A stretch of DNA of 64,000 nt, from positions 604 through 64,603 of the forward strand of contig JAGORG010000005.1 in NCBI GenBank assembly GCA_018062965.1. Reading direction: 5' to 3'. The notes under the pieces were generated by a model, which was not told the origin of the DNA, made no database searches, and worked only from the letters and a program-made list of their open reading frames with translations. The stretch comes from Minisyncoccota bacterium (lineage in GTDB: Bacteria > Patescibacteriota > Minisyncoccia > Phycocordibacterales > UBA5272). The translations under genes were made by a program, and so were the position numbers. Of this stretch, positions 1,802 to 44,971 are shown piece after piece (position 1 is the stretch's first letter; the number at the start of each line of letters is the position of its first letter).

Positions 1802-3538
1802 TTATACCTGATGAGCAATCAAAGACTGGTAGTGCGATGATGTTTTGATAAGTTCCTCATGTGTTCCTTCGCCGACAATAACGCCTTTATCCATGACAAT
1901 TATTTTGTCAGCGTCTTTTACAGTAGAAAGACGATGCGCAATGATGATGGTTGTTTTACCTTTAGAAACATTATTAATAGCCTCCATGACTTTTGATTCG
2001 TTTTCTGTATCAAGCGCTGATGTTGCTTCGTCAAAGATAAGTATCTCTGGGTCTCTAATAATTGCACGCGCAATACCGATACGCTGACGTTCGCCTCCTG
2101 AGAGTTTGATGCCTCGTTCTCCGATAACGGTTTCAAACTTTGCTTCACCGAGGCGATGATAAAACTCTGTTATGCGTGCTTGTGTAGCAACCTGTTCTAA
2201 TTCCTTCTCTGCTTTTTTCTTTTGCTTATCATCAACACCCATCAAGATATTTTCTCTGATAGTTTCATCAAAAAGATCGACGTGTTGCTCTACGTATCCT
2301 ATATGTGAACGTAAATAAGATCCTTCTATCATTCGTAGTTCGTTATCTCCTAATCTAATAGACCCTTCTTGATAGTCATAGATGCGAAGAAGTAGTTTAA
2401 CGATAGTTGATTTTCCAGATCCAGAGCTTCCAACAAACGCAACTTTTTTGCCTTGTGGAATAGTAAATGAAAGGTTAGTAAAGAGGGGTGTGGTACTTGC
2501 TGGATAGCGGAAGCTTACTTGAGAAAAAACAATATCACCCGCTACCTGAGCTCGTTTCCCTGATTCTTCAAAGTGAGGTTGTGTATCAATAATATGAAGA
2601 TACTTTTCAAGTTCAGTAAAACGAAGCGGCATTTGACGAAGCGCTCGAATGATATTAAATATCTGACTGTTTGCTTCAGTTATGTATGACCAAATAGCAT
2701 AGATTGACCCAGCGGTGAGTGTGCCGATATAGGCAAGGTAAATAATCGCACATGTGCTCATTGCTCGTGTGATATTAAAGAACGCCCAGCGTTTATTGCT
2801 ATGAGCTATCTGTTTGTTCCAGACAAATTTCTTGTAGTCTAAAAATTCTTGGCGGTTATTGAGGTACTTTTTTATATAGAAGCTTTCAGCCCCAAGTGTT
2901 CTAATAAGGCTAAGGTGTTGGAATGATTCGGTGCGGATACGCTTCTGCTTGTCCCAATTGTCAACGTCTTGTTTTATGAACGGTCTGTGGTAGCTTGCAA
3001 AGTAGTTACTCCATAGTATTCCTATGACAAGTACACCCGCTGTGAAAAGTGCTATAGGAATTGAATAAAACCCAATAGCAATAACAGCAAAGAGGGTTTG
3101 GGTTACGGTTGGAAGTATGGTGAGTACTATTGTGGAAATGATTTCCTCCGCTGCACCTTCGCCACGGTTTACAACTTGCTCTTTTACGGCAGAGTGATCT
3201 TCTGAATATTGTGAAATATTGAGTTTGAAAATTTTCTCAAACGAGTACTTTTCTAAATGTTGTTGTATAGCAAAATCAATCTTGTTTTGCCCATGAAGAT
3301 CTGTGAAGTAGGATATAACAACACGCACAAGAATGATTACAAGATTAAAAGCTGTTATCTCTACAGCAAGTCTATAATCAGCGCCAATGATTGCATCAAG
3401 TGATTTTGCTACAAGGAAAATGCTAAAGATACCCATTGCTTGCTGAACAATAATTGAAGCAACTTGAATATAGAAGTCTTTGTGGAAATCCTTAAGTAAC
3501 CTCCATAGGCGAAGGATGAGAAAAAAATATTTTTTCAT
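1802..3538 (-). CDS. ABC exporter with fused permease and ATPase (MsbA/lipid A exporter-like)
   Basis: An N-terminal 6-TM region is followed by Walker A GSSGSGKST, the ABC signature LSGGERQRIGIARAI and Walker B ILIFDEATSALD. Confidence 0.85.
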   Translation of the reverse strand: MKKYFFLILRLWRLLKDFHKDFYIQVASIIVQQAMGIFSIFLVAKSLDAIIGADYRLAVEITAFNLVIILVRVVISYFTDLHGQNKIDFAIQQHLEKYSFEKIFKLNISQYSEDHSAVKEQVVNRGEGAAEEIISTIVLTILPTVTQTLFAVIAIGFYSIPIALFTAGVLVIGILWSNYFASYHRPFIKQDVDNWDKQKRIRTESFQHLSLIRTLGAESFYIKKYLNNRQEFLDYKKFVWNKQIAHSNKRWAFFNITRAMSTCAIIYLAYIGTLTAGSIYAIWSYITEANSQIFNIIRALRQMPLRFTELEKYLHIIDTQPHFEESGKRAQVAGDIVFSQVSFRYPASTTPLFTNLSFTIPQGKKVAFVGSSGSGKSTIVKLLLRIYDYQEGSIRLGDNELRMIEGSYLRSHIGYVEQHVDLFDETIRENILMGVDDKQKKKAEKELEQVATQARITEFYHRLGEAKFETVIGERGIKLSGGERQRIGIARAIIRDPEILIFDEATSALDTENESKVMEAINNVSKGKTTIIIAHRLSTVKDADKIIVMDKGVIVGEGTHEELIKTSSHYQSLIAHQV

Positions 3539-3557: not shown

Positions 3558-4475
3558 TTAAGCGTGTAGGTGAAGGTAGATGTCTTCAAGAGCTCGTACG
3601 GCGTCTCCCGCTGCGATGTTGTTTTGATGATAGAGTACATCTGTACAATCTCCGGCAGCCCAGATACCTTGTACGCTTGTTTCTTGTGTGCGTGGGTTAA
3701 TAATAATATTTTTTGTTGGGCTAAGATCAAGAAGGTTTTCAACGAAAGATGTTGCGGGGATTTGCCCGATTTCAACAAACACTGCAGCAACAGGAAGTTT
3801 TATTTCTTCACCAGAACCATCTGTGTAGCTGAGCGACTCCACAAACACAGACCCTTCTACTTTTGTTGGAACAGCGTTTTCGATCAGTTTAAAGTTCGGG
3901 TGTCGTTTTAGTTTTTCTACGGTGATAGCGTCAGCTTTTGGTGCGCTGCGAGAAAGAAGAGTTACACTTTTGCAGTAGGCGAGCAGTTGAGCTGCAGATT
4001 CAAACCCAGCATTACCTCCACCAACCACAACAACATCCATGCCACCAAAAAGTGGTCCATCACATGACGCACAGTAGGTGAGACCTTTATGTTCAAACGT
4101 GTCAGCTCCAGGAACTTCAAGTTTTCTTCGTGCTGAACCAGTAGAGACGAGCACTGTTTTTGTTAGGTATGTTTCAGTGGTTGTTGTAACAGTAAAGTCC
4201 CCATCTGTTCCAGATATGGCACTCACTTCACCTTCTACAATAGATAGAATGTCTCCTTTGTATTCCTCAACGTGTGCACGGAGAGATGTTGCTAGCTGTG
4301 CCCCAGAGATGTGTGGTGTACCAATCCAGTTTTGAATATCGTCAGAGACGATAGACTGGCCTCCCCATTCCTTGAGAATGAGTAGTGTTTTGAGTTGTTT
4401 TCGAGCAGCATATACAGCTGCCGCAGTTCCAGCAGGGCCTCCACCGATAATAACAAGGTCGTAGATAGTAGACAT
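3558..4475 (-). CDS. trxB: Thioredoxin-disulfide reductase
   Basis: FAD motif IIGGGPAGTAAAVYAARK, redox-active CASCDG, and NADPH motif VVGGGNAGFESAAQL. The ORF-track start at 4493 is a GTG, and the internal ATG (MSTIYDLVIIGGG) at 4475 is the likelier start. Confidence 0.9.
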   Translation of the reverse strand: MSTIYDLVIIGGGPAGTAAAVYAARKQLKTLLILKEWGGQSIVSDDIQNWIGTPHISGAQLATSLRAHVEEYKGDILSIVEGEVSAISGTDGDFTVTTTTETYLTKTVLVSTGSARRKLEVPGADTFEHKGLTYCASCDGPLFGGMDVVVVGGGNAGFESAAQLLAYCKSVTLLSRSAPKADAITVEKLKRHPNFKLIENAVPTKVEGSVFVESLSYTDGSGEEIKLPVAAVFVEIGQIPATSFVENLLDLSPTKNIIINPRTQETSVQGIWAAGDCTDVLYHQNNIAAGDAVRALEDIYLHLHA

Positions 4476-11960: not shown

Positions 11961-13013
11961 TTACTTCACGTATGACAATGTCATGCGTTCTTCGTTTGCA
12001 TCAAAGAGAGTGATTGTAAACTTGTAGCTCTTTCCGAGTGAAAGCGCTTCGCGAAGTTTGCCTTCATCTCCGAAATCAGAAACATGCACAAGTCCAGCAA
12101 CACCTTCTTCTACAGAAACAAGAGCTCCGTGCTTGTTGAATTTGATAACAACACCTTCAACTTCGTCACCCTTCTTGTATTTCTGAGCGGCTTCCTTCCA
12201 TGGATTTTCCTTAAGAGCCTTAAGAGAAAGTGAAATCTTTCCGTCTTTTACTTCGATAATCTTAGCGCGAACTTTGTCTCCGACACGAGCGTGAGTCTTT
12301 GTGTCTTCAACGAGTCCCCAGTCGATTTCTGACTTGTGAACGAGTCCTTCGACACCGTCATCAAGTTTAACGAAGATACCGAACTCAACAACACCAGTTA
12401 CAGTACCGTTTACTTCGTCCCCAAGGGTGTAGTTACCAGAAACAATTTCCTTTGCTTCCTTTGTTCCACCATCTTTTTCAGAAAAGATAAGCTTACCTTC
12501 CTTTGGAATTGCATTGATGATTGAAACAGAAATACGCTTTCCGATCAATTTCTTCAATTCACGAAGGATCTTGTCCTTGTCTCCGTCTTCAACGCGAGGA
12601 TAGTTTTCTTCCTTAAGCTGTGAGGCTGGAAGGAATCCAGTGATACCTTGCCACTCCATAATAAGTCCACCTTTGTTTGCGTCCTTGACCACGAGGTCCA
12701 TGATACGCTTTTCTTTGATAGCAACTTCTGCATCGCTCCACATGAGGGCCTGACGAGCTTCCTTAAGAGAGAGTTCGATGTAACCTTCTTTGTTTTCGCG
12801 AACGATTACCTTTGCAGAAATCATGTCTCCGATGTTGATACGCTTGATCACATCGCGTGCATTCATGAATTCAGCACCATAAATAATACCTGTACCAGAA
12901 AGACCGAGGTCTACATACAGCGCCGCCTTTTCAATGGCTGCAACTGTACCTTCAACGATATCGTCCATACGGATGATTGTTGTTTCTTCTGTTGTTGTTT
13001 CGTTTGTTGTCAT
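11961..13013 (-). CDS. rpsA: 30S ribosomal protein S1 (short form, about 4 S1 domains)
   Basis: Repeated S1/OB motifs (GTVTGVVEFGIFVKLDDGVEGLVHKSEI; GDKVRAKIIEVKDGKISLSLK; GDMISAKVIVRENKEGYIELSLK). A terminator hairpin plus U-tract lies downstream at 11921-11950. Confidence 0.85.
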   Translation of the reverse strand: MTTNETTTEETTIIRMDDIVEGTVAAIEKAALYVDLGLSGTGIIYGAEFMNARDVIKRINIGDMISAKVIVRENKEGYIELSLKEARQALMWSDAEVAIKEKRIMDLVVKDANKGGLIMEWQGITGFLPASQLKEENYPRVEDGDKDKILRELKKLIGKRISVSIINAIPKEGKLIFSEKDGGTKEAKEIVSGNYTLGDEVNGTVTGVVEFGIFVKLDDGVEGLVHKSEIDWGLVEDTKTHARVGDKVRAKIIEVKDGKISLSLKALKENPWKEAAQKYKKGDEVEGVVIKFNKHGALVSVEEGVAGLVHVSDFGDEGKLREALSLGKSYKFTITLFDANEERMTLSYVK

Positions 13014-13149
13014 GAAAAAAAATAAATTCCCACACGAAAGGTGGGATTCACACCTTCGGTCTGTGCTCCGTCTATCGTTTGCTACGCATATACGGGGATT
13101 ACGCCAGAACGCTATCTATTAATGTAGATGGGTACAATACTACAACATA

Positions 13150-13200
13150 TCCGCCAAAAAGACAAATAAAAAGCCGCAGAGCACGAATGCTGCTGCGGCT
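13150..13200 (-). terminator. Rho-independent terminator for the GC-rich two-gene operon
   Basis: On the minus strand the hairpin AGCCGCAG...CTGCGGCT is followed by TTTTTATTTGTCTTTTT. Confidence 0.55.
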
Positions 13201-13223
13201 GGATGTGTCACCAACCTTGCTGG

Positions 13224-13592
13224 TTAGACAACGATTGGTGACGTTAGGGTTTTCATGCGGTAGTAGACGTATACCTTGTACCCCATCAGTTCGGTGGCAT
13301 GGTCGTGCAAAACAAACTGAACCCTATAGGTTTGGCTTTCCTTGGTGAGAAGGTTTGGAATCTTTCGTTCCAGTTCGTCCTTCTTAAGGAATGTCTTGAA
13401 GCCTTGTTTTATGGAGATACCTGTACCCGTTTTGATGCGGATGCCGTTGGTTGCGTTTTCGTTTGGCTCGCGAGTGCTAGAGCAGCGCGCGAACCAGCCA
13501 GCGACTTCCTCACCGTGAGCATGGAAGACCTCAAAGAGGATTCCATCCTCAACGAATGTACGCTCGAGGTTTCTGTAGTCATTCAGGTTCAT
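13224..13592 (-). CDS. Hypothetical protein (122 aa) in GC-rich island 1. The Shine-Dalgarno site GGAG lies upstream.
   Basis: The ORF starts 17 nt after the upstream ORF stop, its codon usage is GC-rich and unlike the host, and a terminator follows. I found no recognisable motif (HAHGEE is the only notable patch). Confidence 0.5.
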   Translation of the reverse strand: MNLNDYRNLERTFVEDGILFEVFHAHGEEVAGWFARCSSTREPNENATNGIRIKTGTGISIKQGFKTFLKKDELERKIPNLLTKESQTYRVQFVLHDHATELMGYKVYVYYRMKTLTSPIVV

Positions 13593-13609
13593 GTCCTTGC
13601 TCCTTGTTG

Positions 13610-14011
13610 TTAAACCGGAACGCTAACCGTGACCCGGACCGGAACCTTAATCGAGCAGTAGACCTGCTCGGTGAGGATCCCTGTTTCCAGCTCTCCAGGG
13701 TTATGGAAGGCGCGAATCTCAAAGATGCCTTCTTCTCCGCCGGTTGCAGCGGTGATTTTCTCACTAGGAATCTCAAGGGTGAGAATCTCGACGCTGGGAT
13801 CCTTATCGGATATTCCGACAACCGAGTGAGCTGGAGGTGACTGCCAGTTCTTGGGTTTCCCATTCGCGCCGACGAAGGCAAGAATAATGGGCAGCCCAGG
13901 GACCAGTTGCATGAGGGTACCAATGCGAGTCGTCTTGGTTTTAACGTTAACCACGGAAACGGTTGCTCCGTGAAGTTTTTGAGCAATTTGAAATGTCTTT
14001 GCGGTAGCCAT
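13610..14011 (-). CDS. Hypothetical protein (133 aa) in GC-rich island 1
   Basis: A canonical Shine-Dalgarno site (ttgaaAGGAGtgcatcATG) and GC-rich codons. I found no recognisable motif. Confidence 0.5.
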   Translation of the reverse strand: MATAKTFQIAQKLHGATVSVVNVKTKTTRIGTLMQLVPGLPIILAFVGANGKPKNWQSPPAHSVVGISDKDPSVEILTLEIPSEKITAATGGEEGIFEIRAFHNPGELETGILTEQVYCSIKVPVRVTVSVPV

Positions 14012-14202
14012 GATGCACTCCTTTCAATGGTGTGCGTGAACTATATTTCTAAGTAAGTATGGCAACCCCCTTAGAAACAACCCTGAGCAGTGCCAGAAAA
14101 AAAACTTTTTCTAAGCGCCGTCAGTAGCGTATATAATATAACATATTAATAAGTAAATGTCAATGTTCTCTTATTTTTCAGTTCAAGATATTTAGGATAT
14201 TA

Positions 14203-14232
14203 AAATAAAAAGCCCGCATCTTTCGATGCGGG
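14203..14232 (-). terminator. Rho-independent terminator after the 60-aa gene
   Basis: On the minus strand: CCCGCATC-gaaa-GATGCGGG followed by CTTTTTATTTT. Confidence 0.7.
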
Positions 14233-14249
14233 AGATGTGATGGGGTTGG

Positions 14250-14432
14250 TCAGCCTTTGCGGCCGGTACCCATCTTGATGGTGCGGGCCGAGCAAACAAA
14301 ATTACTCGGAGTGTTTGTGCGGGGGATTCCCACACTCAGCGGCTTCAGTCCGGGTCTGGCAGATGCCGGGGGCGGGCTGTAGTCCCGCATTTCGACTTCG
14401 CCATTGGCTTTCTTGAAAGTGACCTTGCACAT
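14250..14432 (-). CDS. Small protein (60 aa) of unknown function, apparently set up for high expression
   Basis: MCKVTFKKANGEVEMRDYSPPPASARPGLKPLSVGIPRTNTPSNFVCSARTIKMGTGRKG. The Shine-Dalgarno site GAGGAG sits 7 nt before the ATG at 14432. A consensus promoter (TTGACA-16-TATACT) lies upstream and a clean terminator lies downstream. Confidence 0.5.
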   Translation of the reverse strand: MCKVTFKKANGEVEMRDYSPPPASARPGLKPLSVGIPRTNTPSNFVCSARTIKMGTGRKG

Positions 14433-14494
14433 GTCTTTGCTCCTCAAAGTGTGCTTTTTCTATGCAGCTGACCACCAGCTACATTTCTCTCTAC

Positions 14495-14522
14495 AGTATA
14501 CATACTTTTACATATTTGTCAA
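14495..14522 (-). promoter_or_regulatory. Consensus sigma70-type promoter (TTGACA -35, 16-nt spacer, TATACT -10) driving the 60-aa gene
   Basis: On the + strand the sequence reads AGTATA (14495-14500) ... TGTCAA (14517-14522), so on the minus strand it reads TTGACA-16-TATACT. Confidence 0.6.
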
Positions 14523-14563
14523 GTGTTCCTAAAAAAGCGAGTAGCTGATACACTTTTGTAACT

Positions 14564-15199
14564 ATGATTATTACTCACTACGGACGACAGCATTTCAAAC
14601 TTCAGGTTGGAGATACAACTTTTGCTATCAATCCAGTTTCAAAAGAGGGGCGAGGAAAAACTGCAAAATATGGTGCAGATGTGTGTTTGGTTACTACAAA
14701 TCACCCAGACTATAACGGTATCGAGCAGGTGACACATGGAGAAAAAGTACCGTTTGTGATTTCTGGTGCAGGGGAATACGAAGTTGCAGGTATTTTTATC
14801 AAAGGGTTTGCAACAGAAGTAGAACTCAAAGAAGGAAAGACAGAAAAAACCTATCAAAACACAAGTTACTGTTTTACCTTTGACGGTATCCGTGTGACGT
14901 TTTTGGGTGCTCTTGGTAAGAAGCTTGAACCACATCACAAAGAAGTTATAGATGAAACAGACGTGTTGTTTGTTCCGGTTGGAGATGATTCATTTTTGCT
15001 TAACCCATACGATGCAGAAAAGTTGTCTGTTTCTCTTGAGCCAAAACTTGTTATTCCAATGGATTATGATGAACAATCGCTTCCTATTTTCCTCAAGGAA
15101 GCAGGTGCTGAAAAAGTGGAACCAGTTGAAAAGCTCACCATCAAAAAGAAAGACATAGAAGGCAAGAACGCTGAAGTGGTACTGTTCCACGAGATGTAA
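14564..15199 (+). CDS. Metallo-beta-lactamase-fold hydrolase (UPF0173/UlaG-like)
   Basis: The N-terminus MIITHYGRQHFKLQVGDTTFAINP matches the MBL-fold 'MKITWLGHACF.I..G..IL.DP' pattern, and the protein is about 210 aa. Confidence 0.6.
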   Translation: MIITHYGRQHFKLQVGDTTFAINPVSKEGRGKTAKYGADVCLVTTNHPDYNGIEQVTHGEKVPFVISGAGEYEVAGIFIKGFATEVELKEGKTEKTYQNTSYCFTFDGIRVTFLGALGKKLEPHHKEVIDETDVLFVPVGDDSFLLNPYDAEKLSVSLEPKLVIPMDYDEQSLPIFLKEAGAEKVEPVEKLTIKKKDIEGKNAEVVLFHEM

Positions 15200-34401: not shown

Positions 34402-35175
34402 TTAGCTTGTGAGCTTCATCAGCTGTTTTTGGCTCCAGCGGGCGAACTTGTCGCCGCCGTTCATGTGACGACGATGCAGGAACTGCGTCATCCAGGCGGC
34501 ATTGCTGTCGAGCCGGCCTTCACTGTATGTGACGCCGAACTTCTCTGCTTCCTTGTGGCAATCTTCCGGCGCGGTCGTGGTTTGTGAGCAGCTGAGAAGG
34601 ACTTCGAACGACTTTTCGCTGTAGGGCGTCGCGAGGATCTTGTGCAGCTTGCGCAGCTCTTGAATCAGGTCTGCTTTTGTGCGCAGGGCAGGTACCATGC
34701 TGTCGATGATCTTTTCGGCGACAGCTGGATGCTGTTGCATCCACACCAAGATACCGGAAGCGAGGCGCAGTCGCTGCTCGTTTTCATTGCTTGTGTAGTC
34801 CTGTGTGCCAGCATCTTTTTTCATGATGTTGTACCAGGTGCGGCCGGCGACTGCGCCGAGGTATTGGGCGCTGTAGATGGCTTCGGCAATTTCCTGGGCA
34901 TCAGTTGGCAGTGCTCCAGCTTTCATGTCGGAGATTTTCTGCAGCCGGGTCGTGACACCTGCTTCCATGGCTTTGTCAGCCGCGAGCTCCTTCTCTTTGG
35001 CAGTTTTTTCAGCTGCAATCCTGTCTTTCTCAGCCTTCTCGGCTGCAGTTTTGGCGTCCCGTTCGGCTTGGGTTGGCCCTTTGACGACAGGCGCTGGCGC
35101 AGGAGGAGGTTCATTCTTGTTGCAGCCGGTCAAAGCTGTCAGACAAATCAGAATCGAAATCAATGTGCTTTTCAT
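34402..35175 (-). CDS. Lipoprotein of unknown function, in GC-rich island 2
   Basis: A signal peptide with the lipobox LTALTGC, an Ala/Lys/Glu-rich linker, and about 58 % GC with CTG/GCC/CGC/GGC codon preference unlike the host. The Shine-Dalgarno site AAGGAG lies 8 nt before the ATG. Confidence 0.6.
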   Translation of the reverse strand: MKSTLISILICLTALTGCNKNEPPPAPAPVVKGPTQAERDAKTAAEKAEKDRIAAEKTAKEKELAADKAMEAGVTTRLQKISDMKAGALPTDAQEIAEAIYSAQYLGAVAGRTWYNIMKKDAGTQDYTSNENEQRLRLASGILVWMQQHPAVAEKIIDSMVPALRTKADLIQELRKLHKILATPYSEKSFEVLLSCSQTTTAPEDCHKEAEKFGVTYSEGRLDSNAAWMTQFLHRRHMNGGDKFARWSQKQLMKLTS

Positions 35176-44554: not shown

Positions 44555-44971
44555 CTACATATGGCCAAGCTCTTGCAGGGCCAGCTGGAGAGATTTGCGC
44601 TCAACCGATAGCAGTTTTACGGCAGGTTTGCCCAGCATATTGTTGCCTGTAAGCCTCAGTGTTACCCACTGGGCTCTGCCGTTTTTTACGGCTTCAAGCA
44701 GGAGAGGTACAGAGACTTCATGCCCAATGTCCATCATCACGTTTTTGAACTTGCAAAAGCCGGGCTTATGCAGGCGGATAACTGTGACACGGAACTGAAG
44801 TTGCTCGATCTTTGCCGAGATTTCTGACCTCTGCGGTAAAGGTGCGATGGTGACGTTATGTTGTCCTGGCCTCCTCATAAGGCCAATCATTTTTTTCTGT
44901 CCCCAGGCCCTAACCATTTCGGTAGGAGATAAGGCTTGGGGCTTTTCTAATACTTCGCTTTCTTGGCTCAT
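44555..44971 (-). CDS. Hypothetical protein (138 aa), forming GC-rich island 3
   Basis: About 52-55 % GC, the Shine-Dalgarno site GAGG 6 nt before the ATG, and its own terminator. I recognised no motif (MSQESEVLEKPQALSPTEMVRAWGQKKMIGLMRRPGQHNVTIAPLPQRSEI...). Confidence 0.45.
   Translation of the reverse strand: MSQESEVLEKPQALSPTEMVRAWGQKKMIGLMRRPGQHNVTIAPLPQRSEISAKIEQLQFRVTVIRLHKPGFCKFKNVMMDIGHEVSVPLLLEAVKNGRAQWVTLRLTGNNMLGKPAVKLLSVERKSLQLALQELGHM

Follow-up and report, generated by a model that had tools for sequence, protein, structure and literature searches.

The window analysed here is a 64,000-nucleotide stretch of contig JAGORG010000005.1 from a Minisyncoccota bacterium, in which the interval between a divergent MBL-fold gene and rpsA (13014–14525) carries three minus-strand open reading frames (ORFs), orfA, orfB and orfC, of 60, 133 and 122 amino acids (Table 1). 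An initial annotation had recognised the same three genes and described them as one module in an island of 55–60% GC. The overall figure was too high: the interval has 47.9% GC against 42.3% for the whole window, the richest 300-nt window inside it reaches 53%, the ORFs range from 48.5 to 57.9%, and the spacer between orfA and orfB (14012–14249) has 37%. However, an anomaly in GC content at third codon positions (GC3) is present, at ~3.3 to 5 standard deviations above the native mean of 0.35 (standard deviation 0.06), calculated from native ORFs of at least 150 amino acids. The genes are thus compositionally distinct, as had been suggested. The 13014–13130 portion of the interval is a native rpsA leader that had gone unrecognised.

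Gene order (MBL–orfA–orfB–orfC–rpsA) is the same in seven contigs from independent samples and assemblers, all encoding the exact orfB protein and 97–100% identical to the window across both junctions. For substitution analysis we used L008, a more distant relative. Ratios of non-synonymous to synonymous divergence (dN/dS) were 0.12 for orfA (18 synonymous and 9 non-synonymous changes; dS 0.58), 0.24 for orfB (dS 0.71) and 0.15 for orfC (dS 0.23), compared with less than 0.02 (dS 0.21–0.28) for the flanking MBL and rpsA genes; all three are therefore coding genes under purifying selection. The synonymous divergence of orfA and orfB is two to three times that of the flanks, with the excess concentrated in the 5′ third of orfA, in orfB and at the start of orfC, and orfB has 72% amino-acid identity where the flanks have 98–99%. 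All changes in the C-terminal two thirds of orfA are synonymous, and the protein combines a variable N-terminus with a conserved C-terminus. The dS of orfC matches that of the flanks, implying that the cassette is older than the split from L008.

The genes are arranged in separate promoter-to-terminator units, and not in a single three-gene module. The promoter and terminator of orfA are as initially described, whereas a second promoter of equal score, upstream of orfB, had been missed. The tight orfB–orfC pair is also as described, with 17 nt between the genes, and is served by one promoter and one terminator; the hairpin of the latter (~13200–13172) has a loop too long for the consensus scan and folds strongly. 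This terminator shares its 12-nt tail, GGCTTTTTATTT, with that of orfA, which lies 1039 nt upstream. In agreement with the initial annotation, each gene is preceded by a Shine–Dalgarno (SD) core, GAGGAG for orfA and AAGGAG for both orfB and orfC, 6–8 nt before the start. Strains hardly differ in the promoter and 5′ untranslated region (UTR) of orfA, in contrast to its coding sequence. This UTR is predicted to form a 5′ hairpin (~14483–14463) and a second one, GCACA...GAGGAG...AUGUGC (14454–14427), which encloses the SD core and pairs the start codon and the Cys codon. As a separate observation, the initiation regions of orfC (13590–13604, minus strand) and orfA (14430–14444, minus strand) hold near-identical 15-mers, AGGAGCAAGGACATG and AGGAGCAAAGACATG, with as many matches obtained in 2 of 100 shuffles; the likeness is not kept in L008, and is therefore probably due to chance or local conversion.

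Table 1. Features of the MBL–rpsA interval and other SD-led or GC3-rich genes of the window
Feature	Position	Strand	Properties	Basis
orfA promoter	14495–14522	−	TTGACA-16-TATACT, inside motif ACTTGACAAA	consensus scan, 11/12
orfA 5′ UTR	14427–14494	−	~60 nt	folding, z = −3.4
orfA	14250–14432	−	60 amino acids; basic, isoelectric point (pI) 10.4; GC 57.9%, GC3 0.67	ORF, dN/dS
orfA intrinsic terminator	14213–14232	−	8-bp stem with 6 GC pairs, then U-tract	
orfB–orfC cassette absent in L011	13144–14202	−		blastn of L011 against window
orfB–orfC promoter	14135–14163	−	TTGACA-17-TATATT with extended −10 TG	consensus scan, 11/12
orfB–orfC structured 5′ leader	14012–14128	−	~120 nt	folding, comparison with L093
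orfB	13610–14011	−	133 amino acids; fast-evolving; GC 52.2%, GC3 0.56	ORF, dN/dS
orfC	13224–13592	−	122 amino acids; founder of a small new family; GC 48.5%, GC3 0.61	ORF, dN/dS, 13 relatives
orfC intrinsic terminator	13162–13200	−	GCCGCAGC...GCUCUGCGGC, then UUUUUAUUU	folding, z = −4.3
Native rpsA leader	13014–13142	−	outside the island	nhmmer, covariance model, folding
Predicted lipoprotein	34402–35175	−	257 amino acids; signal peptide, lipobox LTGC; GC 55%, GC3 0.65; AAGGAG SD	
138-amino-acid ORF	44555–44971	−	GC3 0.55; SD GAGGA	no significant Pfam match
Clear-SD gene, 62 amino acids	11240–11428	−	Pfam-less	
Clear-SD gene, 318 amino acids	39501–40457	−	Pfam-less	
Clear-SD gene, 160 amino acids	40590–41072	−	Pfam-less	

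The units are also separable between genomes. L011, a close relative (rpsA 97.6% identical), matches the window at 14643–14203 and 13143–12600; orfA and its terminator are followed there by ~45 nt of other sequence and then by the rpsA leader, with the ~1.06-kb orfB–orfC cassette missing. The cassette is present in every other strain and in L008, and orfA in all of them, L011 included. Beyond L011, orfA-like genes occur without orfB–orfC in at least eight other species, and orfB–orfC occurs without orfA in L093. The borders carry no integrase, transposase or other mobile-element genes and no att or direct repeats, the only flanking repeat being the 12-nt tail of the two terminators. A target-site duplication through GGCTTTTTATTT was considered for the insertion or deletion of the cassette, and was rejected on the grounds that the empty site of L011 is not the predicted product.

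Allelic variation of a different kind was seen in L010, where orfA (~215–300, corresponding to 14353–14270 of the window) equals the window gene apart from one stretch of ~75 bp, replaced in frame, in which about half of the positions differ. The last third of the protein is altered as a result, a sign of recombination between alleles, which are mosaic. Variation of orfA and orfB in the style of a diversity-generating retroelement was considered, but whole blocks are replaced, without preference for adenines, and the interval shows no template repeat.

A genome scan with rpsA yielded 80 related species, none of which has an orfA, orfB or orfC homologue by tblastn. In 62 species, the MBL gene and rpsA are separated by as little as 185 bp or as much as ~4 kb, often of higher GC content than the surrounding locus. 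At least eight species of the scan have in this gap an ORF on the rpsA strand that starts ATGTGC (encoding Met-Cys, 'MC'), follows AAGGAG and a ACTTGACAAA-type promoter with the same −35 context as that of orfA, and has a GC3 of 0.5–0.83, a length of 60–169 amino acids and a pI of 9.9–11.0. Pairwise matches at E = 1e-6 to 2e-12 link several of the 'MC' proteins of other species, which have the C-terminal motif [KR]P.YKD[RH]R..G[ST]G in common. A ninth 'MC' ORF occurs in L097, a more distant relative whose locus was reached through its orfC homologue and lies outside the rpsA scan. In the minimum-free-energy folds of the window and four other species (L097, L050, L054 and L048), GCACA upstream of the SD core pairs with UGUGC of the start and Cys codons, a pairing that may be the reason for the conserved 'MC'. 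The window orfA shares with this set its slot, strand, promoter, AAGGAG-type SD and ATGTGC start, initiation hairpin and basic pI. On the basis of synteny, promoter, initiation hairpin, N-terminal MC and composition, orfA is a probable local member of a clade-wide 'MC' set occupying the same slot. Separately, the MBL locus of L097 was found to carry a solo orfC homologue (120 amino acids) as well as its 'MC' basic ORF (2944–3162, 72 amino acids, ending ...SSARCGIVPTGRGHRRLIRGSAGF), so that both gene types recur in the same neighbourhood.

The relatives of orfB and orfC lie elsewhere. A 775-kb Paceibacterota contig (L093/L094/L111) encodes a 133-amino-acid orfB homologue (33–35% identity, E = 7e-14 to 8e-17) directly upstream of an orfC homologue, with 4 nt between the genes, an equivalent promoter before the pair, a tRNA-Leu gene upstream and parB downstream. 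For orfC, an exhaustive HMMER search of 1.84 billion representatives returned 13 full-length relatives of 109–126 amino acids and 29–44% identity, with conserved positions that include C..S.RE.N..GTNG.R and LDDE.T. Most of these relatives are solo monocistronic cassettes equipped with a private promoter, SD and terminator, and their locations are unrelated (behind a cupredoxin-like gene, beside an MBL gene, or elsewhere). The pair is thus maintained as a unit at different loci, and orfC is able to stand alone. In L093 (3797–6363) the pair lies ~210 nt downstream of the tRNA-Leu(CAA), and on the other side of the tRNA are three small ORFs with raised GC3 (93, 88 and 116 amino acids; GC3 0.48, 0.63 and 0.55) that by eye look like winged-helix DNA-binding proteins; no att-type repeats surround the L093 cassette, where the only repeat is a promoter-like 14-mer.

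Assignment to known families was unsuccessful, as it had been in the initial annotation. Searches of Pfam, PHROGs, NCBIfam, PADLOC and PDB sequences gave no meaningful match for orfA, orfB or orfC, and the orfC family alignment had none in Pfam, PHROGs, PADLOC or PDB sequences; two weak PHROG matches of orfC (E = 0.017 and 0.073) are absent from other family members, and were therefore attributed to chance. No relatives of the three genes were found in scans of IMG/VR or, by tblastn and blastn, in INPHARED phages and PLSDB plasmids, a scan of JGI metagenomes with orfC gave no match, and among 5.8 billion proteins none outside related contigs of the Candidate Phyla Radiation (CPR) was related. 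We found no description of these genes in the literature.

The leader of orfB–orfC is conserved between the two lineages in which it occurs. It comprises a long hairpin, P1, a second hairpin, P2, whose core AGGGTTGTTTCTRARGGGGTKGYCATACT starts at 14084, and a third, P3 (14035–14015), in which GCAC is predicted to pair with GUGC around the AAGGAG core in both lineages. When folded separately, the leaders of the window and L093 give these same hairpins (z = −2.8 and −4.2). A 39-nt core is identical at 30 of 39 positions, against an identity of only 33% for the proteins, and both leaders have AAAGGAGTGCA as their SD context. In an alignment of three sequences from the two independent lineages, 88.9% of cells are paired, compared with 38–52% when the partners are slid, and six pairs have changed on both sides. 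No Rfam match at E ≤ 10 overlaps 14012–14128 on the leader's strand. From this folding and conservation, we read the leader as a putative translational control element.

A second leader lies next to rpsA. Its parts are a conserved promoter −10 element, TAGTAT (13142–13137), a structured RNA of ~117 nt (13014–13130) and a terminator hairpin (13046–13028) whose U-tract abuts the rpsA ATG at 13013; one further hairpin is variable, and a GUGG segment farther upstream is a possible competitor for the 5′ arm of the terminator. With nhmmer we obtained 37 matches in 36 related species, always 5′ of rpsA, and with a covariance model 46 matches in 953 kb, all upstream of rpsA (45 loci) and one of them in the window. 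Compensatory changes in its P1 helix run from CG to UA, UA to CG and GC to AU. Rfam has no match for this leader, the best weak match in the interval lying elsewhere (E = 2.3). We regard 13014–13130 as a candidate attenuator for autoregulation by S1. Two further observations concern this element: L053 has two tandem copies upstream of rpsA (3778–3909 and 3929–4046), and the window (~13014–13020) is without ~80 nt, containing CTGAGGAGGTCGCGG, that relatives have between the leader terminator and the rpsA start (L008 2811–2894, L011 617–699), so that rpsA begins right after the U-tract with no SD.

The high GC3 of the slot genes goes together with their mode of translation initiation. An SD-like core precedes five of five GC3-rich ORFs of the window but only 4 of 50 native genes (Fisher p = 3.6e-5), while 21 of the 50 native genes have a −10-like TAnnnT hexamer 4–11 nt before the start, compared with 12% at random positions, which points to frequent leaderless mRNAs and bears out the initial description of native genes as SD-poor and leaderless in appearance. 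Across 45 related loci, an SD-like motif precedes 32% of GC3-rich ORFs versus 7% of others (odds ratio 6.5, p = 1.7e-7). The relatives of orfC have a GC3 of 0.48–0.67 against 0.17–0.41 for their neighbours in nearly every genome, the exception being L097_C (0.40 versus 0.39). Within the window, SD use coincides with ORFan status: the only other genes with a clear SD (Table 1) lack Pfam matches, as does every SD-led gene tested. The anti-SD motif has been detected in only 48% of Parcubacteria (PMC9297842). As high GC3 and SD use recur across family members and species, they represent a persistent property of a gene class in this clade, and not the fading mark of one recent import. Candidate causes of the GC3 richness are selection, biased conversion and repeated exchange through an unsampled CPR-specific mobile pool.

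Taken together, we consider it probable, albeit with moderate confidence, that the interval is a variable slot between the divergent MBL-fold gene and rpsA that holds three independent units, and not one imported module. The first, orfA, is monocistronic: its promoter is close to consensus, its terminator is private, and a predicted UTR hairpin occludes both SD and start codon. The product, strongly basic and rapidly evolving, is probably a small nucleic-acid-binding protein that would be translated once the initiation hairpin opens. The second, orfB–orfC, is a self-contained accessory operon, in which a promoter and a three-hairpin leader precede the genes of two cytoplasmic proteins, both from new families, and a terminator follows. 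It is gained, lost or relocated by recombination and would serve a strain-variable function under post-transcriptional control, probably in conflict or host interaction. The third is rpsA's own leader, of attenuator type. The protein genes all belong to an SD-led, GC3-rich, Pfam-less class, set among core genes that are SD-poor and often leaderless. What the data establish directly is the anatomy, the coding status, the separability and presence or absence of the units, the distribution of the families, the conservation of the leaders and the association of SD use with GC3.

Several observations weigh against this reading. At the protein level the kinship of orfA with the 'MC' set is not significant: the highest-scoring comparison, between its L008 allele and L016, reaches E = 0.026, a hidden Markov model of the other-species 'MC' proteins gives the window orfA no score, and nhmmer with the orfA upstream region finds a single DNA-level match, again in L016, at E = 1.4. 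The orfB–orfC leader is known from only two lineages, which makes its covariation statistics thin, and a scan of JGI metagenomes for its motif brought no third, only a known contig and nine chance matches. AlphaFold2 models were unusable (pLDDT 33 for orfC from a single sequence, 37 for orfB from a three-sequence alignment), precluding any fold comparison. The GC3 anomaly is mainly an excess of C at third positions, with some G, above the mild C3 bias of rpsA; an unsampled reservoir on mobile elements, for instance CPR phages or plasmids, is possible. Finally, the biochemical roles of the products and what the leaders sense are inferred.

Could orfB–orfC instead be a two-component conflict system, whether toxin–antitoxin (TA), abortive infection or toxin–immunity, with the orfC family as orphan immunity or antitoxin cassettes? 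The compact operon (4–17 nt between genes), the presence/absence polymorphism, the high divergence of orfB, the occurrence of orfC alone at varied loci and the strong private promoter on each copy would all fit such a system. We nevertheless think it unlikely, because neither family has PADLOC, Pfam or PDB similarity or a recognisable secretion or toxin domain, and because dN/dS below 0.3 gives overall no sign of positive selection. Furthermore, type II TA operons autoregulate transcription, and an SD-sequestering structured leader is atypical of them. A broader proposal, equally doubtful, is that the hairpin-locked AAGGAG cassettes (orfA, orfB–orfC, the 34.4-kb lipoprotein and the 44.6-kb 138-amino-acid ORF) form a distinct translational regulon for fast-evolving interaction or conflict functions, with the orfB–orfC leader as a riboswitch-like sensor. 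The core genome would in that case have largely abandoned SD, and the cassettes would be on only when their hairpins open or anti-SD becomes available.

The initial annotation saw a single three-gene module that had recently come from a host bacterium or phage of higher GC content and was still unameliorated, which now appears quite improbable. This view draws on GC3 values of 0.56–0.67 against 0.35 ± 0.06, SD sites in an SD-poor genome, private promoters and terminators, the lack of orfB–orfC in one relative (L011), and the position of orfB–orfC beside a tRNA gene in another genome. A recent arrival is difficult to reconcile with divergence from L008, given that the dS of orfC equals that of the flanking genes and the dS of orfA and orfB lies above the flanks, not below; nor does it account for raised GC3 in relatives only 29–44% identical, in different genomes, or for the many species in which this slot holds a gene resembling orfA behind a promoter of the same type. 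The proposed host or phage donor found no counterpart in the protein, virus, plasmid and PHROG searches described above, where every homologue is in related CPR contigs. The separability of orfA and orfB–orfC, and the lack of integrase, att repeats and mobile-element genes, argue against transfer as one module.

Two other explanations are very improbable. Structured non-coding RNAs could underlie the GC-rich segments, with ORFs present only because stop codons are sparse there: in AT-rich genomes, islands of high GC are often a sign of structured RNA, ORFs of similar length overlap in other frames (for example 13579–13986, 135 amino acids), and the interval does contain two real leader RNAs. 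For the ORF bodies this is refuted by substitutions falling mainly at third positions of the annotated frames, by in-frame indels and an in-frame block replacement that preserve the frame, and by the 13 full-length relatives of orfC at the protein level; the segments also lack an Rfam match. The initial annotation further raised a precursor peptide with two partner proteins, that is, a system like those of ribosomally synthesised and post-translationally modified peptides (RiPPs), in which orfA would encode the precursor, and orfB and orfC modifying or partner proteins. A 60-amino-acid ORF with a strong promoter beside two unclassified proteins is suggestive of this arrangement, but a terminator and a second promoter separate orfA from orfB, the two units occur without each other, ORFs resembling orfA reach 169 amino acids elsewhere, orfB and orfC have no enzyme-like domain in Pfam or NCBIfam, and the conservation of orfA along its length is opposite to the RiPP pattern. 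An assembly chimera of two organisms' DNA, which the initial annotation had wanted checked at both junctions and for which only the shift in composition speaks, is excluded by the agreement of the seven independent assemblies and by the same junctions in the more divergent L008 and L010.

Flexible genomic islets with strain-specific accessory genes are a general concept of bacterial pangenomes, and the slot between the core genes MBL and rpsA resembles them in that its content varies by species (185 bp to 4 kb) and by strain (orfB–orfC), and its genes are ORFans of atypical composition. Acquired DNA is usually AT-richer, whereas these genes are GC-richer than the genome; moreover, integrase, transposase and att site are lacking, each gene or pair is a complete promoter–UTR–terminator unit, and the signature of composition and SD use persists across species with no decay. 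The orfB–orfC leader is comparable to SD-sequestering leaders such as riboswitch platforms, RNA thermometers and ribosomal-protein leaders, in that its last hairpin pairs the SD region and is preceded by two conserved hairpins with compensatory changes, as the orfA UTR is in pairing SD and AUG; unlike them, it matches no Rfam family and is limited to two lineages. The organism, moreover, appears to use SD only rarely. Among ribosomal-protein leaders, the E. coli rpsA leader and Rfam S4-Fusobacteriales offer parallels to 13014–13130, which is rpsA-specific, covaries and places a terminator directly before the gene; it differs in having no Rfam sequence or structure match and in a terminator-based, transcriptional design, control by S1 in E. 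coli being translational. A genome nearly free of SD but with a few strong AAGGAG sites also recalls the SD-poor translation of Bacteroidia, except that the SD-led genes here are GC3-rich ORFans and not a ribosomal protein gene.

Knowledge of CPR bacteria comes mainly from genomes, in which ORFans make up a large share of the genes. In one Paceibacteria clade, ORFans share a persistent signature of high GC3, SD sites, long structured 5′ UTRs and private terminators, which offers a practical handle on an accessory gene set, probably related to symbiosis or conflict, and raises the question whether two modes of translation initiation coexist in a lineage for which loss of anti-SD has been reported. 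The locus yields two new protein families (orfB and orfC) and a probable third (orfA-like), as well as two candidate cis-regulatory RNAs absent from Rfam, the attenuator leader of rpsA being the better supported.

Elsewhere in the window, the 257-amino-acid predicted lipoprotein has no Pfam match and no homologue in the 80 related loci, and the SD-led gene of 160 amino acids shows a raised C3 bias as well. In other species the slot holds further GC-rich ORFs: those of L014 (5411–5770) and L019 (5361–5597) have the Cys/His motif CEFC..GH..H..ACP in common, suggestive of a family of small zinc-binding proteins, and others encode a 95-amino-acid membrane protein (L013) and a 201-amino-acid ORF (L042).

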